Source: a virus (Duplodnaviria; Caudoviricetes). From it: a stretch of 64,000 nucleotides of DNA. Shown here piece by piece: positions 16,862 through 53,495 of this stretch. The notes under the pieces were generated by a model. It saw nothing but the letters and a program-made list of their open reading frames with translations. It was not told the origin of the DNA and made no database searches. The position numbers were made by a program, and so were the translations under genes. The stretch is taken from positions 1 to 64,000 of the IMG/VR virus record IMGVR_UViG_3300014205_009256; one strand, given 5' to 3'. The first letter of the stretch is position 1. Each line of letters starts with the position of its first letter.

Positions 16862-17491
16862 TTACCCGGCGCTGGCGGGTTTTGTCGGAGAAGGTTGGCC
16901 GACGTACAGACCCAGCCCCTTCTCCGCGAAGAACGCCCGCAACCGCACCAGGTGGTTCTCGTAGAAAGTGGCCTGCGCCACGCCCATCGCGCGGGCGACG
17001 TGCGAGATAGGAAGGGTCTGCAGCAACTCCGCCGCCCGTCGCAGGTCCGGCGGGAGCTCTTCGAGCACGGCCTGCACGTCAAGGCGCAGGTGAGTGCGCT
17101 CCTCGGCGTTCCGCCGGTACTTGCCCGACCGGATGTCCTGATCGTCCTGGTCGACGGTGTCGAGTCGCTGGACAGGCGTCTCGCCGTCGCCGGCGGCGAT
17201 GTCCTCGTTGAGCGAGCAGTCCTCACGCCGATAGTCCCGCACGTCCGACTCGCGGTAGCGGACCAGGTTCTGGCCCTTGCGGTCGATGACGCAGGTGACG
17301 AACAGCTTGAAGCTGGACCTGCTGGAGTCGTACTTCTTCAGGCGTTCCAGCAGGTCCACGAGCATCGCCTGCCGGATGTCCTCGAAGTCGTCGGCGGTGA
17401 AGCCAGCCTTGCCGACCAGTTCCGCCGCCTTGATGTTGACCATGTCCAATGCGAAATCCTCGAAATCATGAAGAAGCTTGTTGGTGTCCAC
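16862..17491 (-). CDS. sigma-70/ECF-like protein
   Basis: Region-2-like D.EDI.Q...DL......YD..R..F; C-terminal region-4-like HTH; paralog at 54202. Confidence 0.75.
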   Translation of the reverse strand: MDTNKLLHDFEDFALDMVNIKAAELVGKAGFTADDFEDIRQAMLVDLLERLKKYDSSRSSFKLFVTCVIDRKGQNLVRYRESDVRDYRREDCSLNEDIAAGDGETPVQRLDTVDQDDQDIRSGKYRRNAEERTHLRLDVQAVLEELPPDLRRAAELLQTLPISHVARAMGVAQATFYENHLVRLRAFFAEKGLGLYVGQPSPTKPASAG

Positions 17492-17671
17492 TGGGGACCT
17501 CCCGTTGGCCGGGAGGCGTCGCGTGGATGCCGACAGAGGCTGCGATCACTTGCGCTGGAGGCGTTGCAGGATTGCCGCTTCTGCGGCACCCACAACGCCT
17601 CCACTAAGTGGCCGGTTAGTTGTCAGGTACTCGGATACGTTTCGATCACATGGATGGGCCGCCAGCCCCGA

Positions 17672-18001
17672 TCAGGCGCACACCTCCTCCAGGGTCATCC
17701 GGAACGGAAGACCGCGCTGAATCTCGATGCACGGGACCACGCCGTCGCCCAGCGCCTCCAACTGGGCCAGCAGGTCGCGGACTTGGGCCTTGAGCGCGAA
17801 GTCGGCCTTCGCCGACTCCGCACGCGGCCCGTTCTCCCCGCCGAACTTGATCTCACGGATGATGCGCGGGCGCGGATCGAGCACCGGCTGGCCGGCGCGG
17901 ACGACCAGGCCTTCGATGCGGCCGTAGTTCACCCACTGCATCAGTTCGATAAGCTTCCGCTGAGGGGGAGTCGCGCCGTCTTTCCAACCAGGAGCAACCA
18001 T
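17672..18001 (-). CDS. conserved hypothetical protein (GGENGPRAE motif)
   Basis: Paralog of 53710..54029; first gene of the replication operon. Confidence 0.75.
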   Translation of the reverse strand: MVAPGWKDGATPPQRKLIELMQWVNYGRIEGLVVRAGQPVLDPRPRIIREIKFGGENGPRAESAKADFALKAQVRDLLAQLEALGDGVVPCIEIQRGLPFRMTLEEVCA

Positions 18002-18109
18002 CGTTACTGTCCTTTCCGCGGGTTGGCAGGGGTGAGCACCACGCCCGCCCGTGCAACCGCGATGGGGGCAGTAAAAGGGATGGATTTCCGGCGCAACGAT
18101 CGCGCAACG

Positions 18110-18145
18110 AAAAAAGCGGCTCAGAAATGCTCGTTCTGAGCCGCT
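18110..18145 (-). terminator. rho-independent terminator
   Basis: Perfect 12-bp IR agcggctcagaa (18115-18126) / ttctgagccgct (18134-18145) followed by a T run on the minus strand. Confidence 0.75.
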
Positions 18146-18195
18146 GTCGCGGGGAAACACGCTGAAAATTCTTCAGAAACCCGTGTGGCGCAACT

Positions 18196-20385
18196 TCAAA
18201 CTTTCACGTTGCGCTGCTTTGGGGTGCGGATTTCGGTCGTGATCGCATCCATGATCTGGAGCACCTCGTCGTTGGCCAGCCCCTTGGCCTTGGTGATCCA
18301 CGCCTTGTAGCTGTCCACCTTCACGCGACACGCCCGTCCAGACTCGCCGTTAGACTCGATTTCACCGGCCTGCACAGCTCTGGAAATCGTGCCCTTGTCT
18401 GGTGATTCCTCTTTGCCCAGGACACGCTGTGTGGCACGCAGGACTTGCGCCTGCGTGGCCCAGGCAAATGCATCGCCAACTGGCCGCTCGACTACGGTGA
18501 CCGGCACGCGTACCTGTCGTTCCATCCCGTACTTGACGAACCGCACATCCAGCGTGGCGGGAGCCCCGGGCACGGAGAAGGGAGCGCTCGTGCCGGGGCA
18601 CAGATCGACTTGGCCCGAGGCCTCCGATGCGTCAAACAGGGTTCCCGAGGGGGCAGCGCACAGGCCGCGCGCGATCCCAATGCCCTCGTTGCGGATCGTC
18701 ACCGTACCATTCTCACGAGTCGCCACCAGGTACGGCCACAGAGGCAGCCCGAACTGCTTGAGCATCGCATCGTCCAACGCGGCAGCGTCGGCCACGGTTG
18801 ATTTGAGCACCTTGCCTCCATCCCCGACCGAGGAGGGCACTCGTCCCTCGGTTAGGAGCCGCAACGCCGCAGGCATGCCGGTAAGATTCGACGGCAAGGT
18901 CTTCGCGGCCGCCATGCACCAGTTGAGTTTGCCAAGAAGTTCATCGCACGAACCCTTTGTGGCCTTCAAGCGTTCGTGTAGGACGCCCACTAATTTCCAC
19001 AGGATGGCGGCGAAGCAGTCCGGCGACAAATCCTTCGGCTTCCAGCGGAGGCTATAGACCCTCACCTCATCACCGCCGGGATCGACGTCCCATGACTCAA
19101 GTTCATGGTCGATGGCCCAGGCAAGAATCGCCGTTTCAGCGCACGGCCGGCTCGGGGCATCGATGAGCTGCACCCGCTCCACCAGCGCCTCTGCCACAAC
19201 GCCCCCGAGTTGCAGTGTCTGCGCGTCGGCCCGACAAGCGTCAAGGAGCGCCGCCGATTCCCTGGGGCTGCGGGCGATCAGTTCGCCAACCCGCATCTTG
19301 ACATCGTCGGTAATGCCCACTGTGGGAAGAAGCTGGTTCAGGGCGCGCAGGTGCGGCTGCCACTTGTTCCACGGCTCGCCCAGGTTAAGCGCGTCGAAGA
19401 ATTGCTGGCGCGCCGCAGTGCTGAGCATCACGTCGCGGAACGGCGTCAAATCAACGTTGTCGGGGAACAAACCCAAATCGACATCCAGTTCATCCAGAGA
19501 GCGCGGCGTATGGGTGTAGTAGTCCGCGTCCAGAATCGCGCCCTCGGCCGTGTCCACCAACCGGTAGAACACGCGGGCTTGTTCCTCCGCCGTTTTGGGC
19601 TCGGTTTTGTAACTGATCTTGGGAAACCGCAGCCGCAGCGATCCGCTCAACCCGCGGATGAAGAACCGCACCTGGATGGGGTAGTTCAGGCAGCCGTCCC
19701 GCACCTCGATGTCCGAGTCAAAGGACTCGATCCGCGCCTCCGGATCAACCTGAATCTCGCGTAGGCGATCCGCCTGCGGGTCGATGTACTGGCGGCTCTG
19801 GAAAAGCGCGTGGTCGATGCTCCGGTATTCCTGCCCCGAGGGATCGGCGAAACGCAGCATGTACAGCCGATCGACGAAGCGGTCGAAGCACAGCTTGCGG
19901 AGCTTGGCCAGATCGAACTCGCGCTTGGTCACGGCGTCTTTGGGAACATGCAGAAACGCTGCGTTGAAGTCGTTGAGCCGCTCATCCGTGATCCGCCGCC
20001 CGCCTCCGGTCGCCTTGAACCGCAGCAGTCCGTTCTCATCCCGCGCATAATGAACGCTGACCGTATCAACGATCACGTCCTGCCAGGCGAACCACAAGGG
20101 CCGGCGATTGTCGTAGTCATATGCCCGAACCGACAACTCATCCTGTAGCCCCAGCACCACGTGCAAGGCATCGGTCGCGGTCGACTTTGTCCAGGCGAAG
20201 ACGCCGAAGCGTATCTGCGGCGTCAGCCACGCAGATTCCAGGCCCGCGCGAAGCGCGGGGTAATCGAATGGGACGTTCGTCTGGTACGACTGGATGGTGA
20301 TTTCACGCTGGTCGAGGATGCCGTCGGCGCGCGGCGGAGTTGCCAGGTGCTGAATGTGGTCCCGAGGTTCGTATGAAGCCGCCAT
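18196..20385 (-). CDS. 729-aa protein: unknown N-terminal region plus C-terminal wHTH-like domain (C1)
   Basis: Last ~85 aa homologous to the C-terminus of 20499..21467. Confidence 0.8.
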   Translation of the reverse strand: MAASYEPRDHIQHLATPPRADGILDQREITIQSYQTNVPFDYPALRAGLESAWLTPQIRFGVFAWTKSTATDALHVVLGLQDELSVRAYDYDNRRPLWFAWQDVIVDTVSVHYARDENGLLRFKATGGGRRITDERLNDFNAAFLHVPKDAVTKREFDLAKLRKLCFDRFVDRLYMLRFADPSGQEYRSIDHALFQSRQYIDPQADRLREIQVDPEARIESFDSDIEVRDGCLNYPIQVRFFIRGLSGSLRLRFPKISYKTEPKTAEEQARVFYRLVDTAEGAILDADYYTHTPRSLDELDVDLGLFPDNVDLTPFRDVMLSTAARQQFFDALNLGEPWNKWQPHLRALNQLLPTVGITDDVKMRVGELIARSPRESAALLDACRADAQTLQLGGVVAEALVERVQLIDAPSRPCAETAILAWAIDHELESWDVDPGGDEVRVYSLRWKPKDLSPDCFAAILWKLVGVLHERLKATKGSCDELLGKLNWCMAAAKTLPSNLTGMPAALRLLTEGRVPSSVGDGGKVLKSTVADAAALDDAMLKQFGLPLWPYLVATRENGTVTIRNEGIGIARGLCAAPSGTLFDASEASGQVDLCPGTSAPFSVPGAPATLDVRFVKYGMERQVRVPVTVVERPVGDAFAWATQAQVLRATQRVLGKEESPDKGTISRAVQAGEIESNGESGRACRVKVDSYKAWITKAKGLANDEVLQIMDAITTEIRTPKQRNVKV

Positions 20386-20498
20386 CCGCGTTCCTCACTC
20401 AAGGTATTCGATCCGGTCGCCACGCCGTCGGCAACAGCTCGCCGCTCCCGGCACCCGACAATGGCCCGGCTCGAACCTTGCGTCTGGGGTACGCAGGA

Positions 20499-21467
20499 TC
20501 AGCAGCGGTTCGATATTTCGCCGATGACAGCGTTGCGTACCTGGTCGAGTTCGTCCTTGGCCAGTTCACGGCTCTTACCGAGCCAGGCAATAAAGCTCTT
20601 AGTATCCACCATGCTCGCCCGGCCGGATTTCTGGTTCGTGGCAATCTCTCCGTTGCGGCACGCCCGCGAAAGGACACCGGCGTTCAGGCCGGAGTCCTGG
20701 CCGAGCACCTGGTTCGTGGCCCTGACCAACTCAATCTGCCGCGCCCAAGCGTAACGATCCTCACTCGGCGCGCGAGTGGGGGTGCCTACGGGTTGAGCCT
20801 GCAGCATTACAGCCGTTTGGCACTGCGACGGTGGTGAATGGAGTAGCGCGACATTTGATCCGGTCTCAACCAGGGCCGACATGGGCGTGGGAGCGGGCAC
20901 TTCGACGCTGGTTGCTGGCGCGCTCGCCTGCGTTGATCCCTCGTTCTTCCGCCAAGGGTAGGTTGGTGCCTGCGGCGGCGTGGCGGCAGCTTGCCGCGCG
21001 CGGACCAGGCCGTAGGGTGTGGCCGAGACGGCCGTCCGCATTCCCGATCCGCTCGGCATCCCCGGCGTCCAGCCGTCATAATCCTTTTTCTCGATGAGCC
21101 CGAGTGAGGCGGCTTCGGAGACGGCCGCCATCGCTTCGAAGTTCACCCGCTGCACGTCCCACGTGGTGTGGCACAAACCGATCATCTGGGTCATCAGCAG
21201 TTCGATACGATCCACATCCACCCATCGTCGGGATTGAAGGCGCGGTCCGCCGAATCCGAAGGGAAGATGCGTGGGATTAAAGCGCGATATCTGCCCCAGC
21301 GCCGCGGTCAGCATGGTCACCGCGTGCGGCATCTCACCCCCGTGTCGGCCGGCCTTCCCACGTCGGGTCAGCTCGTACGCGCACGCCAGATCGTTCAGAA
21401 TCTCCGGCGTGACCTGCGGGTCATCCGTGTCGATGCGGCAAGCCTCCAAGAAGAGTTCAACGGACAT
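20499..21467 (-). CDS. 322-aa protein: N1 domain, linker, C1 wHTH-like domain
   Basis: N-terminal ~160 aa homologous to the N-terminus of 48329..51172; C-terminus homologous to 18196..20385. Confidence 0.8.
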   Translation of the reverse strand: MSVELFLEACRIDTDDPQVTPEILNDLACAYELTRRGKAGRHGGEMPHAVTMLTAALGQISRFNPTHLPFGFGGPRLQSRRWVDVDRIELLMTQMIGLCHTTWDVQRVNFEAMAAVSEAASLGLIEKKDYDGWTPGMPSGSGMRTAVSATPYGLVRARQAAATPPQAPTYPWRKNEGSTQASAPATSVEVPAPTPMSALVETGSNVALLHSPPSQCQTAVMLQAQPVGTPTRAPSEDRYAWARQIELVRATNQVLGQDSGLNAGVLSRACRNGEIATNQKSGRASMVDTKSFIAWLGKSRELAKDELDQVRNAVIGEISNRC

Positions 21468-21568
21468 TCACAGCACCTCGTTCCCAACTCACCACTGCAA
21501 ATCTTCCAGATCGGTGCCTTCGCTCAACGCAGGCACCGTGGGCCGATGCGCGCGCGGATCGGCCCAGG

Positions 21569-22330
21569 TCAAAACAGCATTTGGGACCGTTGCCGCAGCA
21601 GTAGCCCGGTCTCCTCAAGACGGATGCGCATCGCCTCCGCCGACACCTCAAATGTGGCGGCCAGCGGCCGCACGAACATCTCCATCAGGGCGCTGGCGGC
21701 GGTGAACTGGTCGGCCCGGCCTGCATCGCTCCGCTGGTTAATCTCGCTGCGCACGGTTTCCTCGCCGTATTCCTCCCACAGATCCTCCAGGCACACCGGC
21801 TCCAGGCTGCCGCGCCAGGCCTGCCAGCCGGCGCGAAGCAGGTCGGCGGGCATGAGCAGGTGCGCGGCGAAGTAGTCGGCCTGCCATTCCACGGGCTTCT
21901 TGGCCTCCGTGGACCGGCACACATACACCGGCTTGCCATCGGCACCAAACAGCTTCGACTGGTCGGGATTCTCTAGGAAGTATGCCCGGTGCAGCCGCCA
22001 GTGCCCCGTCTCGTGGGCCAGCGTGTACCGATAGCGCCCCAGCATCCGGGGGTGGGCGGTGGGATCGAGACTCGAATCCACGCGAACGGTCTTGTCGTTA
22101 ATCCAGAGCGCGCCCAGCACATCGCCGATCCCGAAGCGTTTCTTGAGGTCGTCGATCTCGAAGATGAGCTTGAGATGACACTCGAGAATGTCATCGACGG
22201 GCACCGGGGGGGCCGTCACCGCCTTGAAGCGCTCGCCGTACTCCGCCAACAGCAGCGCCGCCTCGTCCTGGAGCTGCTCCTTGGTGCGGTAAGGCACATC
22301 GCTTCGCGGGATTGCCGATCGCCGGGCCAT
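21569..22330 (-). CDS. ImmA/IrrE-family metallopeptidase
   Basis: R.RYTLAHETGH (HExxH), VEWQADYFAAHLLMP, FEVS..A..IRL. Confidence 0.92.
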   Translation of the reverse strand: MARRSAIPRSDVPYRTKEQLQDEAALLLAEYGERFKAVTAPPVPVDDILECHLKLIFEIDDLKKRFGIGDVLGALWINDKTVRVDSSLDPTAHPRMLGRYRYTLAHETGHWRLHRAYFLENPDQSKLFGADGKPVYVCRSTEAKKPVEWQADYFAAHLLMPADLLRAGWQAWRGSLEPVCLEDLWEEYGEETVRSEINQRSDAGRADQFTAASALMEMFVRPLAATFEVSAEAMRIRLEETGLLLRQRSQMLF

Positions 22331-22334
22331 CGCT

Positions 22335-22694
22335 TCAACCTTCCTTCTCCTTGAGCTTCCTGGCCTTGTCCACCAGTTGCCGCAACTGCTCGGCCGTGAG
22401 ACCGCTGGCCTCACGCAGCAGCTCTGGCATCTGCGTGGGCTGTTTCTGGATGATCTTCGGCAGGTCCTCGGGCACGCGGCCCGCCAGCGCGATCAGTTCA
22501 TCCGCATTCTCGCCGAGAATCTCGGCCATCTTCTTGACCCGCTCTGCGGTCGGCGGGTCGATGTTGCCTTGCTCGACCTGCGAAAGGTAGGTCGGGCTCA
22601 CGCCCACCTGGTCCGCGAACTTCCGCAGGCTGATCCCCTTGGCCATGCGCTTTTCCCGCAGCACGTCGCCGAAGGGTTTCTGTTTGCCGCTCAT
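22335..22694 (-). CDS. XRE-family HTH regulator (ImmR/CapH-like)
   Basis: FGDVLREKR..KGISLRKFA..VGVSPTYLSQVE; adjacent to the ImmA-like gene. Confidence 0.92.
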   Translation of the reverse strand: MSGKQKPFGDVLREKRMAKGISLRKFADQVGVSPTYLSQVEQGNIDPPTAERVKKMAEILGENADELIALAGRVPEDLPKIIQKQPTQMPELLREASGLTAEQLRQLVDKARKLKEKEG

Positions 22695-22734
22695 GATCCG
22701 TGCCTCTTCTTCTTTCCGTGACGGCCAATGAGTG

Positions 22735-22774
22735 TACGCTGTTTACTTTACACGCACACTGCTGAGCTTGTCAA
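22735..22774 (-). promoter_or_regulatory. XRE promoter with operator-like 13-mer
   Basis: TTGACA (22774-22769)-N18-TAAAGT (22750-22745); 13-mer tacgctgtttact at 22735-22747 is identical to 32515-32527. Confidence 0.65.
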
Positions 22775-22803
22775 CATCGCATCGCTGTTCCGCCGCACCG
22801 GCC

Positions 22804-25692
22804 TCAGTAGTACTCCCGGATGTAGGCATACGCCCGGTCGAACAACTCCTGATCCTGGTGGAGCTTGTACTTGAGGAGCGTTTTTCGCAGCGCCTGCTTC
22901 ACTTCACGCTCCCCGGCACTCGTGGCCTGCCAACCGTCAAACCGCACCACGCGAACGATCTCGTCGATGTCGGCGACGATCCGCTCGACCATCACTGGCG
23001 TGTTGGCGTTCTTCGCCTCGCTGAACAGGTCGGTCAGTGCCGCCTTCGCGCGATCCTGGTCTTCCTCGGGGGTAACCGTCTTCTCGGCCGCGATCACATC
23101 CTTGGCCAGTTCGAGCAACTGCTTTAGGAACTCCTTGCTGTTGAGCAGGCCCTGTTCGTGGCGCTCACGCAGTCGCTCCAGCCGCTCGCCCAGGGCCACG
23201 AATTTCGGGTCACCTTTGTGCTTGCGGAGCCGCGCCACGATCTTGATCTCGACCTCCTTGGTCTTGGTGGGGTCCTTTGACGCGACCAATCCCTCGAGCA
23301 CCTCCGCATCCATCACCAGCGTTTCCAGATCGTCGCGCACGGACTCCATGTGGACGTTCTCGTGGATCAACTCGATGGTCTTGGCCCCGAGAGCATGCCA
23401 CAGCAGCTTGCCATTGCCGCTGGGCGGCTTGACCGACTCGTACACCTGCGTCAGCCAGCGGAAGTCGGTCGTATACGGCTTGAGGCACACATCGGGCGAC
23501 AGCGCCTCCCACAGCCGCGCCACGACCGAGTAGTCCGCGGCAAAGGCGTCGCGTGTCTCGTTGTTGGGCAAGCAATCCTGCGCCGCGATCAGGCCCTCGT
23601 ATCCCCCCAGCGCCCGATCCACGCCGGGGAAATACGCCAGGCACTTGGCCACGGCGTCGGGCAACTGCTTCTTCAGTTCGTCCAGGTTCGTGATGACCTG
23701 GAGCACGGCCTTCTCATCGAAGTCCAGCGCCTTGGCGACATCATCGAAGATGCCCAGGTAGTCCACGATCAAGCCATGCGTCTTGTTCGGGAACGGACGG
23801 TTCGTCCGGCAGATCGCCTGGAGCAGATTGTGGTCCCGCATGGGCTTGTCCAGGTACATCACCTGGAGGATCGGCGCATCGAAGCCGGTCAGCAGACGCG
23901 ACGTGACGATCAGGAACTTCAGCGGATCGGCCGGGTCGCGGAAACGGTCCAGCAGCTTCTCCTCCGCATCCCTGCTCAACTCCGGCAGACCGAAGTCGCC
24001 AGGCTGGTTCATCACGACGGCGCTGGCCTCCGGGCCGATCAACTCATCCATCACCTTCTTGTAGAGCACGCAGCATTCACGGTCGAACGTCACCACCTGG
24101 GCCTTGAACCCGTTGGGCTCCACCTTCTCCTTGTAGTGCCGCACGACATGCTCGACGATGGCCCGCACCCGCTCCGGGGCCTTTACCAGCACAGCCATCT
24201 TCGCGGCGCGCTTGGCCAGATCATCACGGTCCTGTTCGCTCAAATTGCCGGTGATCTTGCTGTACGCCTCGTCGATGGCGGCCTGGTCGATCTTGAGCTT
24301 GGGCTCCACCGCTTCAAAATGCAGCGGCAACGTCGCCTTGTCCCGGATGGAGTCCTGGAACGAGTACCGGCTAAGGTAGCCCTTGGCATCTTCGGGCGCT
24401 CCGAACGCCCAGAACGTGTTGCGGTCCCGCGTGTTGATCGGCGTGCCCGTCAGCCCGAACAGGAACGCCCGGGGCAGCGCATCGCGCATTCGCCGCCCCA
24501 GGTCGCCTTCCTGGGTGCGGTGCGCCTCGTCCACCAGCGCGATGATGTTGGGGCGGTCGTTGAGTACACCGTCGGCCTCGCCGAACTTGTGGATCGTCGT
24601 GATGATGACCTTGCGCACGTCCTGCTGGAGCAGTTGCTGGAGTTCGCCGCGCGTCGAAGCGCCCACCAGGTTGGCGATGTCGGCGGCGTTGAACGTGGCG
24701 GTGATCTGCGTGTCCAGGTCAATCCGGTCCACGACGATGACCACTGTCGGGTTGCCCAACTGCGGGTGCATCCGCAGCTTCTGCGCTGCAAAGACCATCA
24801 GCAACGACTTGCCGCTGCCTTGGAAGTGCCAGATCAGCCCTTTGCGCGTCGTGCCCTTCACCACGCGTTCCACGATCAGGTTCGCGCCTTCGTACTGCTG
24901 ATACCGGCAGATCACCTTGTTCCGCCGCTGCTTCTTGTCCGTGGCGAACACCGTGAAATTCTGCAGGAGGTCGAGCACCACGGCCGGCCGCAGCATGGAC
25001 TCAACCGACTTACGGACATCGGCCAGCGCGCCCTCGCCGTCGCCGCTCTGCTGACGCCACGGCCCCCACATCTCGATCGGCATGCGGATGGAGCCGTAGC
25101 GATAGACCTTGCCCTCCGTGGCAAAGGAGAAGACATTCGGCACGAACATCGCCGGTACGGACTGCTCGTAGTTGTCATGCACGTCGGCGGCACCATCTAC
25201 CCACGTCACAGCCGGGCGCACCGGCGTCTTGGCCTCGCCGATGACCAGCGGGAACCCGTTCACAATCAAGACCACATCGAACCGTTTCTCAACCTGGCCG
25301 ACCTGGTAGGTCCACTGGTTGGTGACGATGAACCGGTTGTTGGCGGGGTTGTCGAAATCGATCAGGCGAATCGGCGTGTGCTCATTGTTCGCCCCGAACG
25401 GCATCGTCTTCTCGTTCCGCAGCCACGCGGCAAGAGTCTCATTGGCCCGCACCAGGCCGTCCGTCTGCACGGCCAGGGGCATGGCGCGGAGCCGGTAGAG
25501 GACTTCATCGGCGCGGTCGGGCTGCTGCGCGATCTCCGGATTGAGGCGGATCAGCGCATCACGCACCATCGACTCAACAAACACCTCTCCCGGCTGCCGG
25601 GGTAGCGAGGCCGAAACGGCATACTGCCAACCGTGGCCTTTGCAGGCATCAATCACCATCTGCTCTACGGCGTTAGATTCATTGAAACTCAT
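22804..25692 (-). CDS. hsdR: type I restriction enzyme R subunit
   Basis: D..L.VNG.PL...EAK nuclease motif, QGSGKS, DEAH, LTGFD. Confidence 0.95.
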   Translation of the reverse strand: MSFNESNAVEQMVIDACKGHGWQYAVSASLPRQPGEVFVESMVRDALIRLNPEIAQQPDRADEVLYRLRAMPLAVQTDGLVRANETLAAWLRNEKTMPFGANNEHTPIRLIDFDNPANNRFIVTNQWTYQVGQVEKRFDVVLIVNGFPLVIGEAKTPVRPAVTWVDGAADVHDNYEQSVPAMFVPNVFSFATEGKVYRYGSIRMPIEMWGPWRQQSGDGEGALADVRKSVESMLRPAVVLDLLQNFTVFATDKKQRRNKVICRYQQYEGANLIVERVVKGTTRKGLIWHFQGSGKSLLMVFAAQKLRMHPQLGNPTVVIVVDRIDLDTQITATFNAADIANLVGASTRGELQQLLQQDVRKVIITTIHKFGEADGVLNDRPNIIALVDEAHRTQEGDLGRRMRDALPRAFLFGLTGTPINTRDRNTFWAFGAPEDAKGYLSRYSFQDSIRDKATLPLHFEAVEPKLKIDQAAIDEAYSKITGNLSEQDRDDLAKRAAKMAVLVKAPERVRAIVEHVVRHYKEKVEPNGFKAQVVTFDRECCVLYKKVMDELIGPEASAVVMNQPGDFGLPELSRDAEEKLLDRFRDPADPLKFLIVTSRLLTGFDAPILQVMYLDKPMRDHNLLQAICRTNRPFPNKTHGLIVDYLGIFDDVAKALDFDEKAVLQVITNLDELKKQLPDAVAKCLAYFPGVDRALGGYEGLIAAQDCLPNNETRDAFAADYSVVARLWEALSPDVCLKPYTTDFRWLTQVYESVKPPSGNGKLLWHALGAKTIELIHENVHMESVRDDLETLVMDAEVLEGLVASKDPTKTKEVEIKIVARLRKHKGDPKFVALGERLERLRERHEQGLLNSKEFLKQLLELAKDVIAAEKTVTPEEDQDRAKAALTDLFSEAKNANTPVMVERIVADIDEIVRVVRFDGWQATSAGEREVKQALRKTLLKYKLHQDQELFDRAYAYIREYY

Positions 25693-25695
25693 GGA

Positions 25696-26958
25696 TCAGC
25701 TCCTACGCATCGATGTACCCGCCAGACACTGTTCCCGAAGCGTCCGCCGCATCCGGTCGGCACATTCTCTATGCGCCATGGTTCGGTTCTGACCTGCCGT
25801 GATGTCGTTGACCATGCGCACGAATCTGGTTTGCTCGTCTTTTGGGGGAATTGGCATGTACAGGCGAGCGAAACGGTCTGCCCCAAGATGGGCAATTGAG
25901 GTGGTCTGACTCGCGACGGCCGCGAACACCCCCGCGTAGAACGCGTGTCGCAGGTAAGCAAACGCGAAGTCTTCGAGCAACCGAGGACCTGCTCGGAACC
26001 TAACCAGCGTGTTCTGAAAGCAGCAATCCCTTATCTCTCCGTTGAACACCGCGCAGCGTCCGACGAGTTCCCGACTTTGGCCTTCATTCAGAAGGATGTC
26101 ACCCGGCTTCAGCGCGAACGTCTTAAAATCGCCGTCATCAAAATCCATCTCGAGCACATCAGTCAGGTCGAGATACCCGTCGAACACATTCGCTACCCGA
26201 AGGTATGGCTTGGTGTGCGATCCCGACTGGTACTTTGGTGCGCGTTGTCGCCCCAATTGGACCTCACCAGCGTCACCGATCCGAACGACATCCCATTCAA
26301 CAGGCACCGGCCCCAGCGGCGAGGTCTTGGTACGCCCTGGAGCAGCCGCGTGAACAAAGCAAGAACGGAGGATTGTTCGTCGCGCTGTATCCGCCTGTGC
26401 GACGGCGGCATCGATACGCTCTGCCACCTCTGTCGCGGCCCATAGAATTTCAGCAATGCGGCACTGCTGATCCTTTGGCGGCAGTGGAAACTCCTGTCGG
26501 CGCAGCACGCTCCAGTTGATGGTCGGAGACAGTGAACCGACCGAGATCGACAACGCCCGGTCCATGAACATGCTGCTTTGCATCAGGAACGGCAGGAAGT
26601 CCTTGTCGATAACGTCTTCGCGCGCACGGATGACCATCGCGTGCGCCGAGCAGATGCCGTCGAATTCGGCGACAGCGACCTTTCGCTGATAGACGCGACG
26701 GCGTCCAAAGATGATGTCGCCGGTCCTGAACCGGAGCTTCGTGGCCTCGACATCGTCTGGCGTGCCCCAGCGCCGTATTTTCAGAGACTCGGTGTCGAGA
26801 TGTTCCAAGCCGACGTAGTACTCAGTGTCCGCATCGCCTGGTTCGACGCGCTCGCCGATCGACTCAGCGATCTCGTCGAACCTCGCCATGCGCCAGCCGG
26901 CAGGAAGCGCGGCGGTCACGGGTGCGTTCGTCGGGGATGTTGGTTTCGCGGTCTTCAC
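25696..26958 (-). CDS. hsdS: type I RM specificity subunit
   Basis: Two TRDs separated by conserved LPP..QQ.RI / IPP..EQ.RF helices. Confidence 0.92.
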   Translation of the reverse strand: MKTAKPTSPTNAPVTAALPAGWRMARFDEIAESIGERVEPGDADTEYYVGLEHLDTESLKIRRWGTPDDVEATKLRFRTGDIIFGRRRVYQRKVAVAEFDGICSAHAMVIRAREDVIDKDFLPFLMQSSMFMDRALSISVGSLSPTINWSVLRRQEFPLPPKDQQCRIAEILWAATEVAERIDAAVAQADTARRTILRSCFVHAAAPGRTKTSPLGPVPVEWDVVRIGDAGEVQLGRQRAPKYQSGSHTKPYLRVANVFDGYLDLTDVLEMDFDDGDFKTFALKPGDILLNEGQSRELVGRCAVFNGEIRDCCFQNTLVRFRAGPRLLEDFAFAYLRHAFYAGVFAAVASQTTSIAHLGADRFARLYMPIPPKDEQTRFVRMVNDITAGQNRTMAHRECADRMRRTLREQCLAGTSMRRS

Positions 26959-27003
26959 AATGCGGTTCCTGCTTTTGCGTGGATCACGACGGTCTGTTGC
27001 GTG

Positions 27004-28770
27004 TCACTTCAGCCGTTTGTCGACCCACTTCCACTTCTTGTAGGCGATCTCCATGCAGCGGTTGTAGGCGGTGTTTGTCCTGAGGAATGCGAACGAGCCC
27101 TCGGCAACCTTGTCGGCGTAGGCCGAGTCCCGGATCAGGTCGGACAGCATCATGCGGACGCGAGTCGTCGCGATCTGCGACAGCAGCGCTGTGTAATCGG
27201 CGGGAACGGCCATGCCCTGGCCGAAGGCGTCGGCGTGGTCCGGCAGCTCCGGATCGTTGAGGATGCCCTGGCACAGGAGCGCCCAGACCAGGTTGCGTGC
27301 CCGCAACACGAACTCGTATTTGTTCCGGCCCTTGTCGACGATCTCATTCACGAGCTTCCGGAGGCGGAAGTGAATCTTGTAGCACAGGATGATGTGTCGC
27401 GAGTCGGCCTTTAGGCGGGATGGGTTGAATACCTGGGCGTAGATTCGGTCGTCCTCAAACACCTCCCTGATCCGCGAGAGCTTGTCGATGGCCCCGTCGG
27501 AGACGAGGAAGGTATGGGCAAGGCGGACCAGCTCGACGGCCTTGCCTTCAGTGATGCCCTGTTCCTCCATCTCCTCGTAGCTGAGATTGGCAAAGGCCTC
27601 CTCCTGGCGCTCATAGTAGATGCCCAGGTCCGAGCGGAACTTGTCCTGCAGCTCGAGCTGGATCAGGTCGTTAGCGTGCAGGTTCCAGGGCTCGACGGGG
27701 TTCTGGCGGTTGTTGTTGATGGTCACCGGGGTGACAAACTCCGGCGTGGCGTTGGTGATCACGCGGCACATCACCCGCAGGTCTTCAAGTCGGGGCCGCT
27801 GTTCCGCCAGGCGGGGGTTGTCCTTGTTCGCGTTCATGAACTCGTTGAAGGTTGTAACAGTCTGGGCACCGTTCAGGAGGCGTGGCGCGGTGACGCGATA
27901 CTGCCCATCCACCCGCTCCACCTTCTCGGCAAACATCGTGATGCCGTTGTGGTTGAACGCGAAGACGGCGGGTTTCTCAGTGCCATCAAGAACGATCTGC
28001 TTGAGCGCGCGGGACAGCGCACGGTTGACGGCCTCAGAGCTGCCCAGGCCGTAGCGGATGTTCCGTTCGAAGAATCGCTGCCCCATGTCACGGTGGATCG
28101 TGTTCAGATCGATCAGCCGAATGAAGCCGATGTGCATCACTTGACCATCGGGGCCGGGCTGCGTGATGAGATCGGTCAGCGGCAGATCGTAGACCCTTGT
28201 CTGGCGCATGTCGGCCACTGGCCCGACCTTGCCATCGACCGACCGGAACTCCACGACCAACGTCACCTGTCGGTTGGCGAAGAACTGGTCGACCAGGTAC
28301 TTCTTGTTCTCCAGATCTTCGCGCAGCTTGTCGAGCACCTGACTGCGCTCGGCCTCCGCCGGGTCTCCAGTGAAAACGAAGCGGAAGCACACCTGATCGA
28401 TCAAGGCGCGGTTGTCGATCATGCAGCTGCGGAGCTGCAGGAGAAGCTGATTCTTGTTGTCGTCCTGGTTGGGCGTCAGGAAGATTCGCTCCATGCCCAC
28501 GTCAATCAGCCGCTGGAGCGTTGGCTTGAACTGGGCATGCGATGGCGAGTACTTGAACTGGTACAGATAGAGATTACGCCTGTCGGGATCGAAGTGGAAC
28601 CCATCCAGGCCATAGTCGTTGCCGCCGAACGCGACCTGGTTCACCGCTTTCTCGCGGGACAACCCGCACTCCCGCTGGAGGTAGAGCAGGCCGAAGTAGT
28701 CGTTGCGCACCCCGCCACAGGTTGCCTTGAGGTCGGAGCAGGCTTGGTCGATCATCCGGTCGGTGATCAT
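27004..28770 (-). CDS. AIPR family protein (abortive infection phage resistance)
   Basis: FERNIR..LG, F...NGIT, LLNGAQT and N.QNPV motifs. Confidence 0.85.
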   Translation of the reverse strand: MITDRMIDQACSDLKATCGGVRNDYFGLLYLQRECGLSREKAVNQVAFGGNDYGLDGFHFDPDRRNLYLYQFKYSPSHAQFKPTLQRLIDVGMERIFLTPNQDDNKNQLLLQLRSCMIDNRALIDQVCFRFVFTGDPAEAERSQVLDKLREDLENKKYLVDQFFANRQVTLVVEFRSVDGKVGPVADMRQTRVYDLPLTDLITQPGPDGQVMHIGFIRLIDLNTIHRDMGQRFFERNIRYGLGSSEAVNRALSRALKQIVLDGTEKPAVFAFNHNGITMFAEKVERVDGQYRVTAPRLLNGAQTVTTFNEFMNANKDNPRLAEQRPRLEDLRVMCRVITNATPEFVTPVTINNNRQNPVEPWNLHANDLIQLELQDKFRSDLGIYYERQEEAFANLSYEEMEEQGITEGKAVELVRLAHTFLVSDGAIDKLSRIREVFEDDRIYAQVFNPSRLKADSRHIILCYKIHFRLRKLVNEIVDKGRNKYEFVLRARNLVWALLCQGILNDPELPDHADAFGQGMAVPADYTALLSQIATTRVRMMLSDLIRDSAYADKVAEGSFAFLRTNTAYNRCMEIAYKKWKWVDKRLK

Positions 28771-48328: not shown

Positions 48329-51172
48329 ATGTCCAACGAGGATCATGAGCTGCCAGATGACGTGCTGCTGGAAATATGCCGCGTGTCGAGGGACCACACG
48401 GAATTCAGTGACGAATTGCTCGCCGACCTCCGTGCGGTGTCGCGTCTGGTCGGCAAAGGCCCCTCTCCTCAAGGAACTCAACTACCGCATGCGGTGTCGT
48501 TAATGATCGCAGCTGTGGCGAAACTGCCACAGTTCAACCCAAAACACCTGCCCTTCGGTTACGACGGGCCGACCATTCAGTCGCACGGATGGATCGAACG
48601 GGAATCGCTGGAACGATTGGCAAAGCAGATCGCCGGTCTCCGATGGGCCGACACCGAACCTGCTGCCGTGGCCAACGAGGTCGCCAATGCCGTCAGTGAG
48701 GCTGTCAAACTGGGCTTCCTGGATGAGAAGGACTACGACGCGTGGCAGCCCGGCATGGCATCGGGATCGGGTTGGCGGTCGGCCCTTTCCGTTACGGCGT
48801 ACGGCGTGACCAAGGCGCGATCCGCATCCAATGGCAATGGTTCCAAGCAGCAGAAGTCTCCCGCCACCAACAAACCCCAGGTTTTCTACTTGATCTGTTC
48901 TTCGTCCAAGCCACCAACGCTCGGTCAAGGCACGGTGTTCTACAAGACCACCGACGGCACGGTTGCACAATCGCTGTGTCGCCTCTTCGCCAAGGAATAT
49001 GGAGGCAACGGGGCGCAGCATCACTTTGCGGCCGCGCCAGGCGCGGAGGTGTCGTTAGACGATCAGATACTGCTCGATGAAGTCTTGGACGAGCTTGAGA
49101 TATACGAAGATCCAGACCGTGGCGTTTACGATCCGCCGCCGACCCAGGAGACGATGGACCGCGTGCAGTTTGCTCATCGCGCCACCACATGGGAGGCGAT
49201 GATCCAATCGCGGCCGTCGGCCCTCGCCCCCGCCGAGAACGTTAGACCCGGTCCGAGGGTAAGCCCGGAGCCTACAGTCAGTATCACGCCTCCGTTCTCG
49301 GATTCCGAGGAACTGAATGCCGTGTTCGCGGACACCAATCAGTGTCTTCAGGCATTGCGGGCGATTGGCGGTCACTACAACTATCTGACCTCGCTCGAAC
49401 GAGCCGGCAAAGTGCGCGGCTTGAGAGGGCCGGTGGACGGGATGCAGTTCGCGAGCGAGGATGATCGTCGCGCCTGCGACGATGTCGAAAAACAAATCAG
49501 CGCCGCTGTAAAGGTCTTGTGGAAGCCTCTGGCCCGAGTCTTGGCGTGGGGGCGCGACCAGCGGCTGGAGCTCCCTTTCGATGCGGGCGACTTGACCTCG
49601 CAGATACCATGTTCGTGGTGGGATGAGGGTGAGGATCGCGGCTATTACGAATATTACGCATGTACATGTGAGCATTACCAAGGGGCGCTGGATCAGGTAT
49701 CCAAGGCCGTCACCGTCGTGGCGCGAAAAGACTCGGTGGCACACATCGTCATCGAGTCATTTCCACCTGCCCCGCCTGACGCAATAGCCGACGTAACCAT
49801 GTTGACATTGCGTGAACGGCAGATCGTGCTCGATACCCTGAGGAAGGCAACGCCCGACTTCACGGTGGTGTTCAGTGTTCTCTATGAAGCTCACCTCCCG
49901 CCCTCCGACCTGATCCTGTTCCAGCGACAACGTGATTCGCTCCAGGCGCAGTTTCCGGGATGGAGGGTGAGCGGCTGCCAAAGTGAAGACCTCGCCACGT
50001 TCAAGGCGATGTCGAACTCAGAAGACATCATCCAGCGAGTAATCGCCATGCGGGAACCAAACAAAGATGAGCGACAACCCCCTAAGACAACAACCGACGA
50101 CCAGACAACACTGGAATCCGCTCACAGCCATGTCGTCTCATTGCACGCGCATACGAAAATGCCGGATAGACATGCGGCGCAAAATGCTACTTGTGACCAA
50201 GGAATATCTATGGGGATCGGCACATCGCCGTCGCTTGCAAATGAGTACCTCACAGGTGTAGCACGCTGGGCGAATCAGATTGACTCCTCACAATTGCGAT
50301 TAGCATTGCGCGATCGCCTCACAAAAGCCTTGGCCCACGTTTGCCTCGCTATGAGTCTGGTGGATGACCTCGACGCGTTCGAAGAGAGCAGGCCGGAAAC
50401 CGGTTCCCTGATGTGCGAGGACACGACCACTGGCGTTACGGTCTTCTCTGACGATGACTTGCAGAGCCGATACACTGGCTTGGAGAAGGACCTTGTGGCC
50501 AGCGTCTCCAAAGCAAACGCCACCTATCAGATCGTTGCTGCTTCCCGGGATATTCCTGCTACAGCGAAGGATAGCACGGAGTACCTACTGAAGTGGCTTT
50601 TTCATATGAAGCTGGAACGAACTGCTCATCCTGCATCGCCGCGCGATGAATACTGGCACGATGGTGCTGTGACTCCGCCCTGGGGACAATTCTGGGTACT
50701 CGAAATCCGGCTGTTGCTTCGTCTCAGGTTGATCCAGGTTTCCGAGCATCTGATGCACGAGCGTGAGCAACTGAGTAAGCATGAACCGGCGAGTGATCCA
50801 GCCAAAGGGGCCGAGGCGCCCGGTTCCAGCGCCACGCACGTCGATGCGCGTAACGGCGATGGTTTGAAGGATGGCCCGGATCACGCTGAAACGGATTCGC
50901 ATTCTGATACCGAGATCGAACAGCTAGAAACCACGACCCCGCCGCTAAACATGGGGACCGGACAGTGGGTGACCAACAAAGTGGCCGCTACCCTTGAAGG
51001 AATAAAAGCCTCCAGCCTGGCCGACTACCGTAAAACCAGCAAGAAAGGAATCAAGAATCAATCCGGGAGGCTGGGCCGGGATTGCCACGGCAGAATATGG
51101 CGTCGTCCGGGCACGCCGCATGCTCACGTATGGTATTGGAAACAATCCCTTATCGGCTCTAACACGACATAG
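48329..51172 (+). CDS. 947-aa modular protein: N1, M, unique region, C2 wHTH-like domain
   Basis: N1 shared with 20499..21467; M and C2 shared with 51251..53488. Confidence 0.82.
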   Translation: MSNEDHELPDDVLLEICRVSRDHTEFSDELLADLRAVSRLVGKGPSPQGTQLPHAVSLMIAAVAKLPQFNPKHLPFGYDGPTIQSHGWIERESLERLAKQIAGLRWADTEPAAVANEVANAVSEAVKLGFLDEKDYDAWQPGMASGSGWRSALSVTAYGVTKARSASNGNGSKQQKSPATNKPQVFYLICSSSKPPTLGQGTVFYKTTDGTVAQSLCRLFAKEYGGNGAQHHFAAAPGAEVSLDDQILLDEVLDELEIYEDPDRGVYDPPPTQETMDRVQFAHRATTWEAMIQSRPSALAPAENVRPGPRVSPEPTVSITPPFSDSEELNAVFADTNQCLQALRAIGGHYNYLTSLERAGKVRGLRGPVDGMQFASEDDRRACDDVEKQISAAVKVLWKPLARVLAWGRDQRLELPFDAGDLTSQIPCSWWDEGEDRGYYEYYACTCEHYQGALDQVSKAVTVVARKDSVAHIVIESFPPAPPDAIADVTMLTLRERQIVLDTLRKATPDFTVVFSVLYEAHLPPSDLILFQRQRDSLQAQFPGWRVSGCQSEDLATFKAMSNSEDIIQRVIAMREPNKDERQPPKTTTDDQTTLESAHSHVVSLHAHTKMPDRHAAQNATCDQGISMGIGTSPSLANEYLTGVARWANQIDSSQLRLALRDRLTKALAHVCLAMSLVDDLDAFEESRPETGSLMCEDTTTGVTVFSDDDLQSRYTGLEKDLVASVSKANATYQIVAASRDIPATAKDSTEYLLKWLFHMKLERTAHPASPRDEYWHDGAVTPPWGQFWVLEIRLLLRLRLIQVSEHLMHEREQLSKHEPASDPAKGAEAPGSSATHVDARNGDGLKDGPDHAETDSHSDTEIEQLETTTPPLNMGTGQWVTNKVAATLEGIKASSLADYRKTSKKGIKNQSGRLGRDCHGRIWRRPGTPHAHVWYWKQSLIGSNTT

Positions 51173-51250: not shown

Positions 51251-53488
51251 ATGAGCGGTGAACAAATAGAGACTGTTGATGAGAGACACATGATGGCATT
51301 TCGGGCCGCATGCCGATCGTTGATGGATGGTCTGAAACAACGTGCTGACGCATATTGCATGTTCGGCACGCCTTGCGATTGGTTTCGTACTCAAAGGAAC
51401 TATCGCGTATTTGAAATCCGGGCGCACGTCGGCGGGGACAATCACTTGGTCGAATGTGTGAAGCCTCTCATGACGGAGCTTGAGGAACTGGAGAAACAAC
51501 TAGAGTCTTGGCGCGACTATGAGGCTCAATTGCGCCGCGCAGCAACGGTAACGGTGACCAGAGAAAAGGGATGTTACATCGGGGGCTCCGATCTTCCTCC
51601 CGATGTTTGGAATGCTTTCACATATCAACTTGAGGGCGAGCCAGCCATCACAAACTATTCCACTTGGGTCGAACATGAATCGCATTCCCTCCGAAGTTGT
51701 ATCATCGAGAAGGACTGCAGAAGCCATGTACTCCACGACGATTTTATTGAGTATCTTTCGACATGGCTTGGCGACGCAGATTCTTCGGCCACAGACAATA
51801 GCAAATCAGAAGGTTCAGGCATGTATCTTCATGCGTGCCTGGGCCACAACACAGACTTGTCGACATCCTCGGTATTCTACTTCGTTGATAATCCGTTGAT
51901 TGGTCAATCACTCCAGGAACTATTCCAAAAGGAATACGGAAGCGATGGCAGCAATACCAAATTCTACACAAGCCATGCAAGTAAGCTGAGTGACGCAGAT
52001 CGAATTTTGTTGGATGAAGCCTGCGATATAGTGAGCGTTTACTCTGAGCCGGATCCGGGCGTATATGATCCACCACCTACTCGTTCAATGCATCGTCGGT
52101 CCCAATATGCCGTCCGCGCACGAACTTGGGAAGCGATGTTGAACGCCAAGAAAGCAACGTCTGGGCATAAGGACGTGGGGCATTCAACGCGGAACGGCGT
52201 GGAGAGCGAGGGCCGCGACAATACCACAACACCACACCATGAATCCCAGCAGCCCTCAACCGATGCCAACGCCACAAACAACGAGGCTGGCGTCAGAGAT
52301 GCTATTCAGCAGATGGCGGGCATCTGGGAGAAGTTGAGATTGGCCGCCACAGCACTCATAGGTGCTTCGGAAACGACCTCAGCCGCACCAACGCTGGAAA
52401 TCCAGAAATATCAGGATGCACTAAGTCAAGGAAATGTGTCTTTGGATGGTAGTGGCGAATTTTCGCTTGTTGGACAACACCTTCCACCACATCTTAAAGA
52501 GCATTGTCAGAGTTCGCTCTTGGATCTGCAGCACAAGATGGAGCCATTGACCACACGGCACAACGCGTATCCATTGTGCAAGGACATCACGAAAACAGCT
52601 CGTGAGGCATTGGCCGGATGCATGGCATTAGAAATAGCTTTGGCACTCATCGTGACGAAACCCGGCGAATCGCAGATACCGAAAGAGGAGTGGCGAATAG
52701 CAGGCCACACCGCTTTGATGATTCTTGCGCAAGCATATTACAAGATTCTGGAAAGCGCCATCTCTGGAGCGATGTGTACCTCGCTCGATTTGGAGTTGAA
52801 TCAATCGTATCTATGGACGACGAACAACATCTCGGCACTTCTGCAAGACCATGAAGATCTAAAGGACTTTCCAACCACATTTACACCTATATTCCGCGAC
52901 TTGTATCCATCAACGATTCGAGATTGCGACTGGGAAGACATGGTCGCCCCTGAGGCCGAAGCATTTCTCAGCACAGTGCAGCAATATGTTCTCGGCAAAG
53001 GTGTATATGAACTAACCGAAGGTTCAGCAGGTGGGACTTTCGTCCGCATTTTTCAGTCTTCAGCACAAACCGCAATGGAGCATGCAGAGGCATATCGCAA
53101 GCGAATGCAAACCACATTTCAACGCGTGCTTGATCGTGCCGCTCAACAGCAGCTTGCGGTGCCGGCGTCGGGTCATGATGAACGTCGGTCAGATTCACAG
53201 CATGAGATCGAGACATTGGCAAGTACGACTCCGGCCCTTAACACAAGCAACGGCCAGTGGATTAGCAATAAAGTGGCTGCAAAGCTAGATGGGGTTACTC
53301 CCGCAAGTCTTACGGACTATCGCAAACCAAGCAAGAATGGCATTAGGGATGCCAACAAAATGCTAGGCTGTGATTGTCACGGGAGAATCTGGCGACGAGC
53401 GGGTACGCCACAAGCTCATGTCTGGTATCTGAGATCCACACTCGTGACAAATCGACAGATAAATCGGGGAAAAACCGGGGATTCCTAG
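51251..53488 (+). CDS. 745-aa modular protein: unique region, M, unique region, C2 wHTH-like domain
   Basis: M (KEYG...ILLDE...GVYDPPPT...TWEAM) and C2 (GQW..NKVAA.L.G...SL.DYRK...DCHGRIWRR.GTP.AHVWY) shared with 48329..51172. Confidence 0.82.
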   Translation: MSGEQIETVDERHMMAFRAACRSLMDGLKQRADAYCMFGTPCDWFRTQRNYRVFEIRAHVGGDNHLVECVKPLMTELEELEKQLESWRDYEAQLRRAATVTVTREKGCYIGGSDLPPDVWNAFTYQLEGEPAITNYSTWVEHESHSLRSCIIEKDCRSHVLHDDFIEYLSTWLGDADSSATDNSKSEGSGMYLHACLGHNTDLSTSSVFYFVDNPLIGQSLQELFQKEYGSDGSNTKFYTSHASKLSDADRILLDEACDIVSVYSEPDPGVYDPPPTRSMHRRSQYAVRARTWEAMLNAKKATSGHKDVGHSTRNGVESEGRDNTTTPHHESQQPSTDANATNNEAGVRDAIQQMAGIWEKLRLAATALIGASETTSAAPTLEIQKYQDALSQGNVSLDGSGEFSLVGQHLPPHLKEHCQSSLLDLQHKMEPLTTRHNAYPLCKDITKTAREALAGCMALEIALALIVTKPGESQIPKEEWRIAGHTALMILAQAYYKILESAISGAMCTSLDLELNQSYLWTTNNISALLQDHEDLKDFPTTFTPIFRDLYPSTIRDCDWEDMVAPEAEAFLSTVQQYVLGKGVYELTEGSAGGTFVRIFQSSAQTAMEHAEAYRKRMQTTFQRVLDRAAQQQLAVPASGHDERRSDSQHEIETLASTTPALNTSNGQWISNKVAAKLDGVTPASLTDYRKPSKNGIRDANKMLGCDCHGRIWRRAGTPQAHVWYLRSTLVTNRQINRGKTGDS

Positions 53489-53495
53489 GAATCCC
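53462..53495. promoter_or_regulatory. perfect 18-bp palindrome plus 11-bp-phased direct repeats, operator candidate
   Basis: gggattcctaggaatccc (53478-53495); aaYcgggga at 53462 and 53473. Confidence 0.5.

Follow-up and report, generated by a model that had tools for sequence, protein, structure and literature searches.

Why should two neighbouring phage proteins that are otherwise dissimilar end in the same domain? The question is raised by the first of two adjacent, related elements (elements 1 and 2) in a window of 64 000 nucleotides, the whole stretch of DNA analysed here, which comprises bases 1–64000 of the 78.3-kb IMG/VR provirus record IMGVR_UViG_3300014205_009256. Element 1 harbours two tandem open reading frames (ORFs) on the minus strand, coding for W322 (322 aa, 20499..21467) and W729 (729 aa, 18196..20385). 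Both are present as an initial annotation of this DNA had placed them, and their start codons are consistent with those of homologues. W322 is a candidate regulator that consists of an N-terminal module (N1), a linker and the shared domain (C1), and W729 joins another module (N729) to C1. Our best explanation is that the two are probably element-specific transcription factors that act on class-specific DNA boxes and thereby gate the lytic sigma-factor and replication operon of the element.

W322 and W729 share a predicted winged-helix domain

Comparison of W322 with W729 by BLASTP returned a single significant segment, residues 215–318 of the former against 624–719 of the latter (39% identity, E 8e-20), outside which no part of the two proteins could be aligned. 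This agrees with the initial annotation, where the pair was described as alike only in the last ~85 aa. C1 occupies residues about 238–322 of W322 (20502..20756, minus strand) and about 640–729 of W729 (18199..18468, minus strand). Pfam, PHROG, NCBIfam and PADLOC models gave no match for either protein. AlphaFold2 (AF2) run on the W322 sequence alone was uninformative (predicted local distance difference test, pLDDT, 46) and was rerun with an alignment of 54 homologues, yielding a model of overall pLDDT 83 in which a confident N1 (residues 1–165) and a confident C1 (238–320) are joined by a disordered linker (170–232). C1 itself was modelled at a pLDDT of about 95, in the order strand, helix, helix, beta-hairpin, helix, helix. 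This is the arrangement of a winged helix-turn-helix (HTH) fold (strand, helix, turn, recognition helix, beta-hairpin wing) of the HTH_17/MerR-like kind, followed by two helices.

A structure search of the Atlas with W322 residues 232–304, which relied on the Atlas's own low-confidence model, retrieved HTH_17/MerR_1 clusters in 7 of 10 rows, with template-modelling (TM) scores by hit of 0.74–0.78. In addition, 7 of 15 members of the W729 family showed matches to Pfam HTH_17 (PF12728) below its gathering score of 27 bits, the best at E 0.0074. The AF2 model, the Atlas rows and these weak matches agree with the earlier description of C1 as an excisionase/MerR-type winged HTH, and speak against its being anything other than an HTH. 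The sequences of the pair itself point the other way, since W322 and W729 gave nothing against HTH_17 at E ≤ 0.1 and a six-frame search of the record with PF12728 gave nothing at E ≤ 10. Because the fold matches while the sequence threshold is not reached, we regard C1 as HTH_17/MerR-like in its modelled fold and not as a formal member of the Pfam family. Foldseek found nothing in the PDB at E ≤ 0.001 for the full W322 model, and the C1 profile met only a marginal match among PDB sequences, to the ArgR N-domain (E 0.074).

W322 and W729 do not differ in the residues predicted to form the recognition helix and wing (SRA, GEI, N, SGRA), which is compatible with both proteins reading the same DNA. 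When a C1 profile built from the two copies was run against 1.84 billion cluster representatives, 81 proteins were found, 64 of them at E < 1e-10; in all 64 of these clusters, with proteins of 88–885 aa, C1 lies at the extreme C-terminus. We rejected a recent tandem duplication as the source of the shared C-terminus, since identity between the two C1 copies is only about 40%, lower than that of each copy to its orthologue in L003, another locus with a pair (54% and 70%). This suggests that within the pair they are old paralogues.

An apparently constant N-terminal module with exchangeable C-terminal domains

A profile of N1 (W322 residues 1–165; 20973..21467, minus strand) retrieved at least 99 proteins of 308–1451 aa, mostly from metagenome-assembled genomes of Planctomycetota and Phycisphaerae. 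Clustering the last 110 residues of 103 N1 proteins placed 52 of them in class C1, 18 in C3, 13 in C4, six in C5, three each in C2 and C6 and two in C7, together with seven singleton C-termini. The C-terminal ~100 residues thus comprise at least seven unrelated classes, most of them HTH-like or winged-helix-like. Inspection by eye points to winged helices for C3 and C6 and to an HTH for C4; C4 also gave near-threshold matches to HTH_24, IclR and MarR, and C7 a weak match to Trans_reg_C. Because proteins found with one N1 profile fall into so many C-terminal classes, N1 appears to be the constant part of the family and the putative DNA-binding domain the exchanged part. The initial annotation had proposed swappable N-termini on a shared C1. 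This remains true of the C1 proteins taken by themselves, whose N-terminal parts are modular (N1-like in 32 clusters, W729-like in 20, plus many singletons); family-wide, however, it is the C-terminus that is swapped.

The N-terminal domain had also been taken for a sensor, a description that does not suit N1, which looks winged-helix-like in its model and is not an obvious sensor. To PadR, MarR and TubR winged helices the N1 fold showed a modest resemblance, with VIA Z-scores of 6–7.5 over about 80–100 residues, a range common for this tool. Atlas structures were matched with TM scores of 0.58–0.60 by hit, the PadR row at 0.58, and Foldseek matches had E values of at least 0.085 throughout. 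Pfam and NCBIfam, including their PadR/MarR families, held no match to N1. Two N1 copies modelled as a complex scored 0.00, which is evidence neither way.

Further blocks are shuffled between N1 and the C-terminus, namely X, Y, an AbiJ_NTD3 domain and a long middle region. The N1 proteins P0167, P0168, P0175 and P0176 reach 1100–1450 aa, and some N1 members carry AbiJ_NTD3 (PF18860, 1.6e-54 in P0167) between N1 and a C5 end. For class C2, no relatives were found among the viral contigs searched and a search of 5.8 billion proteins returned the protein itself alone; one C2-like protein, P0164, surfaced through the N1 search.

A conserved slot ahead of the phage sigma-factor operon

The ORF map and Pfam agree with the initial placement of the pair between XRE/ImmA genes and the switch of the replication operon. 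Directly 5′ of the pair and in the same direction (minus strand) lie an XRE repressor-like gene (22335–22694, Pfam HTH_3) and a gene for an ImmA/IrrE-type M78 peptidase (21569–22414, Pfam Peptidase_M78), with a near-consensus promoter, TTGACA-18-TAAAGT, at 22745–22774 ahead of the XRE gene. XRE, ImmA, W322 and W729 form one co-directional unit that is closed by a terminator. The operon beyond it, also on the minus strand, begins with a small protein of 109 aa (17672..18001), named GGENG here after its motif GGENGPRAE, whose homologues align from the ATG at 18001. Next comes a phage sigma-factor-like gene (16862..17491), recognised by a weak Sigma70_r2 match and conserved synteny, and then genes for DUF3799 (PD-(D/E)XK nuclease), AAA_24, DUF669, RusA, a helicase, PrimPol/DUF3987 and a ParB-methylase. 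The GGENG gene, whose product bears the motif GGENGPR(A/P)E, invariably comes first between junction and sigma gene; it has homologues in most related loci and no family match. An Rfam scan of 17000–23000 gave nothing beyond a sub-threshold match to mir-124 in the leader of the sigma gene (17476–17538, plus strand; 26.7 bits against a gathering score of 49), which is almost certainly due to chance.

Element 2 was noted earlier to have an equivalent pair in the same slot, and does: W947 (48329..51172, plus strand, 947 aa, N1-X-middle-C2) and W745 (51251..53488, plus strand, 745 aa, (N745)-X-Y-C2) end in a common C2 domain and are followed by the GGENG gene of this element (53547–54029, plus strand). 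The two proteins have C2 (54–58% identity) and a middle block in common. C2 differs from C1, and the first ~170 residues of W947 are homologous to the N-terminus of W322 (39% identity, E about 1e-38). The order of genes is DUF2924, large serine recombinase, 142-aa protein, W947, W745, GGENG, sigma, PrimPol and ParB-methylase. Because the element continues past the window into terminase, portal, protease-capsid and tape-measure genes, its predicted gene content marks it as a real prophage.

To place these two elements among their relatives, seven viral contigs, 15 genome contigs and three others were compared, with readable context in about 20. Without exception, the loci with readable context place the slot protein directly 5′ of an operon of GGENG (where detected), sigma and recombination/replication genes, which upholds the positional conservation of the slot. 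Where the context is visible, the genes for DUF2924, the serine recombinase and the 142-aa protein stand 5′ of the slot, and XRE, ImmA or defence cargo may or may not intervene. Most elements have a single N1-Cx protein. Element 1, element 2 and L003/L009 encode a pair, and in each of the three the two members are of one and the same C class. The tandem pair, first thought to be the form of the system, is thus a minority arrangement. An XRE gene with an M78 peptidase gene stands directly 5′ of the slot in element 1 and L012, an optional neighbour that does not belong to the family. L028 has a divergent XRE gene that faces the N1 gene.

Could the pair instead be accessory cargo, for example for defence or exclusion, with the shared C-terminus serving as a protein–protein docking domain? 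The slot does adjoin defence genes (a type I restriction–modification (R-M) locus with AbiU, Lamassu and a type ISP enzyme) and L003 has other defence genes; some N1 proteins contain AbiJ_NTD3, and the N-terminus of W729 gave weak rows to DUF4747 and GAPS4b_N (TM 0.43–0.44). We consider a cargo role very unlikely, since the slot is filled in every related element while the cargo is variable, the C-terminal classes are HTH-like or winged-helix-like, and class-specific boxes adjoin the gene, as described in the next section. PADLOC defence models, moreover, matched none of W322, W729, W947 and W745 at E ≤ 0.01.

Class-specific boxes at the junction

The initial annotation pointed to the adjacent intergenic DNA as the operator, and a conserved, operator-like cluster of boxes does lie there. 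The junction of element 1 contains a terminator and repeats of GCGCAACG. A 27-bp near-palindrome, GCGCAAC-N13-GTTGCGC, found by repeat search at 18188..18214, spans the stop codon of W729 (18196–18198). An intrinsic terminator with a 12-bp stem (18115–18145) and a T-run, placed at 18109..18145 (minus strand), ends the XRE–ImmA–W322–W729 unit. Directly past its T-run, tandem boxes GTTGCGC-N4-GTTGCGC with an 11-bp period (18091–18108, minus strand) take the −35 position of the putative GGENG–sigma promoter. These boxes stand exactly 18 nt ahead of the conserved ACT in a −10-like hexamer, TTTACT (18070..18075, minus strand; consensus nATACT in relatives), which was assigned by eye and whose alignment position is conserved. 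C1 loci have the palindrome at the same place, and most of them also a T-run hairpin where element 1 has its terminator. In seven aligned C1 loci the boxes are invariant, and the remaining intergenic DNA is about 49% identical.

Boxes were counted in 252 nt around the end of the slot gene, beginning 12 nt ahead of its stop codon and ending 240 nt past it. The 12 C1 loci hold three to five copies of GTTGCGC/GCGCAAC (in L012 mostly as the one-base variant GCTGCGC) and zero to one of G..CACC. The five C3 loci hold no GTTGCGC/GCGCAAC and two to five tandem G..CACC boxes, which start at or overlap the stop codon in 5/5; C3 loci have four to five boxes over about 60–90 bp between stop codon and operon start. 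Neither box occurs in element 2 (C2), nor in C4 loci except for one copy of GTTGCGC/GCGCAAC in L020. A C2 box, GATTC-N4-GAATC, is present at the stop codon in element 2 and L028: the former has the palindrome GGGATTCC-TA-GGAATCCC over the stop codon of W745 (53478..53495), a candidate C2 operator, and the latter, the only other C2-like locus, has GATTCG-CA-CGAATC just past the stop codon. Two C4 loci have another motif in common. No further cluster of C1 boxes was found in the 5–22 kb of each locus. Across the whole window GTTGCGC is not enriched (17 found, 20 expected) and a one-mismatch search was uninformative; the signal is the local conserved cluster.

The type of box follows the C class and, as far as the sequences tell, not the similarity of the sigma or GGENG genes, because the latter are discordant with class in three loci. 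The sigma protein of L026 (C3) is 60–63% identical, and its GGENG protein up to 76% identical, to counterparts in C1 loci; L019, also of class C3, has a sigma that shares 63% identity with the one from a C4 locus; and the nearest sigmas to that of L008 (C1) belong to C3 and C4 loci. Two considerations weigh against reading this covariation as functional. The boxes lie beside the coding DNA of the C domain, and inheritance of the two as one recombination block would by itself give a class–box association. In addition, the pairing of class and box for C2 comes from two loci, and in element 2 the palindrome is scored as a terminator-like hairpin as well. A functional link between box and C domain is nevertheless suggested by the invariance of the boxes, by their repetition and by the exclusion of sigma and GGENG as covarying partners, and we infer that C1 is the box-binding part of both proteins.

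Repeats of this kind could also be iterons of a replication origin, in which case the slot protein would be an origin-binding initiator and its exchange would reflect replicon specificity, cf. lambda O/ori. The boxes are iteron-like in their 11-bp phasing beside a T-rich stretch, the site adjoins the replication module and the cumulative GC skew peaks near 16–18 kb. Structural comparison of N1 gave rows to HTH_36 'phage O protein family' and Replic_Relax clusters (TM 0.30–0.35) and a match to the Orc1 winged helix (E 0.085), all of them weak. What makes an initiator very improbable is, first, the exact spacing from the tandem boxes to a conserved −10-like element ahead of GGENG and sigma, and second, the occurrence in the same slot of variants with a sigma-54 activator domain, presented below. 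Lastly, the element already has a PrimPol/DUF3987 primase-helicase, and element 2 has no comparable change of GC skew near its junction at about 53.5 kb.

Relatives of W729 with a sigma-54 activator domain

W729 belongs to a conserved family of about 730 aa. Its residues 1–625 form N729 (18511..20385, minus strand), a candidate regulatory or sensor module, of which residues 27–292 resemble unnamed 225-aa Atlas clusters (TM 0.71–0.73). A profile of the W729 family found nothing meaningful among PDB sequences. Among 401 Planctomycetota genomes sampled, two encode a slot protein in which an N729 module (51% and 44–45% identity to W729) precedes a Sigma54_activat AAA+ domain (103 and 93 bits against a cut-off of 20.2) and, beyond it, an AAA lid and a Fis-like HTH. 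Both genes, in L032 (G194:C1:2698000-2717900) and L033 (G225:C77:3000-15257), lie 5′ of the phage sigma-factor operon. Direct repeats begin at or shortly 3′ of their stop codons, and sigma-54-like promoter elements were recognised by eye 70–110 bp past the repeats.

Because N729 is fused to AAA+ and HTH domains in these two loci, it stands where an enhancer-binding activator has its regulatory N-domain. We therefore regard it as likely to be a regulatory or sensor module, its sensing role being what we infer from this position. Here the original idea of a 'sensor plus DNA-binding activator' fits, N729 being the regulatory end of a sigma-54-type activator in two related prophages. Pfam detects no Sigma54_activat domain in W729 or W322, which thus fall outside the NtrC-type proteins by this family criterion.

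Activation or repression of the sigma-factor operon

We postulate that W322 and W729 gate entry into the replicative programme of element 1, a temperate phage of planctomycete type, because the boxes sit at the promoter of the GGENG, sigma and recombination/replication operon. C1 of both proteins would recognise the GTTGCGC boxes, which form the palindrome over the W729 stop codon and then, past the terminator, the tandem pair at −35. W322 would be the canonical member, with a winged-helix-like N1, a disordered linker and a DNA-binding domain, and W729 would bring N729 to the same boxes as a second input. The C domain and its boxes would be exchanged together among related phages, leaving each element with a private regulator–operator pair, here C1 and C2.

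Within this explanation we lean modestly towards activation over repression. First, N729 is fused to the Sigma54_activat AAA+ domain in L032 and L033. Second, none of 18 junctions scanned has a sigma-70-like promoter with more than 8/12 matches, compared with 10/12 at the XRE promoter of element 1, a consensus that may not be that of Planctomycetota. Lastly, the tandem 7+4-bp boxes at −35 resemble activator sites of the pho-box type. The co-directional unit of element 1 and the divergent XRE gene of L028 would suit a cascade from repressor to slot activator to sigma.

Other observations weigh against activation. The boxes overlap core promoter positions (−35 and spacer), which favours repression, and operators made of direct repeats over a promoter also serve repressors, for example P2 C (PMC2995052). 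The L032 and L033 proteins depart from the expected GAFTGA in their sigma-54 contact loop, which by eye reads GHGISGV. In element 2, L005, L013, L014 and L021–L023, no other repressor candidate was found near the slot, which fits a repressor at least as well.

These points lead to the alternative that N1-Cx is an immunity (lysogeny) repressor, which would be made in the lysogen, cover the early promoter when bound to the tandem boxes and stop read-through when bound to the palindrome. Swaps of domain and boxes would then create heteroimmune phages, and W729 would be a second repressor or a modulator at the same sites. There is precedent in the C repressors of the P2 family, which act on direct repeats and have heteroimmune variants (PMC1904268, PMC2995052). 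Related elements of different C classes, C1 and C2, stand side by side in one record, as heteroimmune prophages would, and the exchange of DNA-binding domain and boxes between close backbones is typical of immunity regions. The overlap of the boxes with −35 and spacer, the run of C3 boxes from stop codon to operon start and the many elements that lack any other regulator between recombinase module and operon also fit. We still hold an immunity repressor to be rather unlikely. In element 1 the pair is co-transcribed behind XRE/ImmA, so that derepression would raise the level of the repressor during induction; the homologous slot proteins of L032 and L033 carry an activator-type AAA+ domain; and the junction promoters are poor sigma-70 matches in 18/18 loci scanned.

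The preferred reading, in which W322 and W729 are element-specific transcription factors at class-specific boxes, also allows a more detailed version. In it, N1 would contact the host transcription machinery, the exchangeable domain would provide the private operator and, in some phages, an N729 protein directed to that operator would add a second, independent signal, all at one promoter that decides entry into the sigma-factor-driven programme. This would amount to an undescribed lysis–lysogeny logic in planctomycete phages, which we offer tentatively, as possible and short of probable.

Other genes of the two elements

Past the ParB-methylase gene, at 2601–3758 (minus strand) and leftwards, element 1 continues with an IS110-family transposase and then amidoligase and GATase genes, not terminase or portal. 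As these stand where element 2 has terminase and portal genes, element 1 may be a remnant left by truncation or an element of another kind. Between the two elements, the cargo region holds a complete Lamassu pair (34482–39972, minus strand), with LmuB of 1209 aa (PADLOC 1013 bits) and LmuA of 626 aa (645 bits). A type I R-M locus (22804–32477, minus strand) comprises HsdR, HsdS and HsdM with an embedded AIPR/AbiU-like gene at 27004–28878 (PADLOC AbiU, 1e-26). A type ISP R-M enzyme of 1649 aa (40317–45266, minus strand), made up of Mrr_cat_2, helicase, ISP coupler, methylase and Type_ISP_C, adjoins the recombinase module of element 2.

Significance and comparison with known systems

To our knowledge, temperate phages of Planctomycetota are almost unstudied, and literature searches yielded no description of this family or of planctomycete phage regulators. 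The initial view that this is not a described system holds in that no earlier description appears to exist of the family, of its N1 and N729 modules, of operators anchored at the stop codon or of pairs of one class; exchangeable DNA-binding modules with covarying operators, however, are a known principle. What is gained is a regulator family with predicted operators for four DNA-binding classes and a conserved regulatory junction ahead of the phage sigma-factor operon. It offers a natural series of protein–DNA specificity swaps on a common scaffold, with two adjacent related prophages using different specificity modules, that could serve to study the evolution of phage regulatory specificity, to annotate prophage control regions in Planctomycetota and possibly to obtain orthogonal regulator–operator pairs.

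Among known domains, C1 is closest to HTH_17/MerR_1 (PF12728), with which it has in common the order of secondary structure, structural matches and weak sequence matches in 7/15 relatives. It differs in a longer first helix and turn and in a strongly conserved extra C-terminal helix (Q-x-R-N-A-I-I-G-E-I). Unlike HTH_17/MerR_1, it always forms the C-terminal end of larger multi-module proteins, and no member reaches the Pfam threshold. The NtrC family of enhancer-binding proteins is matched exactly in layout by the L032 and L033 proteins, with N729 as the N-domain and repeats about 70–110 bp 5′ of sigma-54-like elements. W729, in contrast, lacks the AAA+ domain and joins N729 directly to C1, and the GAFTGA loop of its relatives is divergent.

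PhoB/OmpR-type activators act at pho-box-like direct repeats. The junction resembles a pho box in having two 7-bp boxes with a 4-bp spacer at the −35 of a promoter without a good −35 hexamer, and C7 is weakly Trans_reg_C-like; C1, however, is not of the OmpR type and no receiver domain is present. ImmR/ImmA of ICEBs1 and phi105 are repressor–protease modules. A similar pair of XRE and M78 peptidase genes lies directly 5′ of the slot in element 1 and L012, although in element 1 it is co-directional with the regulated genes rather than divergent.

A parallel in evolutionary logic is offered by the heteroimmune repressor modules (P2, P2 Hy dis and WPhi C; lambdoid imm), in which specificity and repeated operators likewise change together between similar phages. 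In the P2 type these operators consist of direct repeats located at the early promoter (PMC1904268, PMC2995052). These repressors bear no relation in sequence or fold to the present family, in which whole, unrelated C-terminal DNA-binding domains appear to be swapped on a constant N-terminus and the proteins are large (310–1450 aa).

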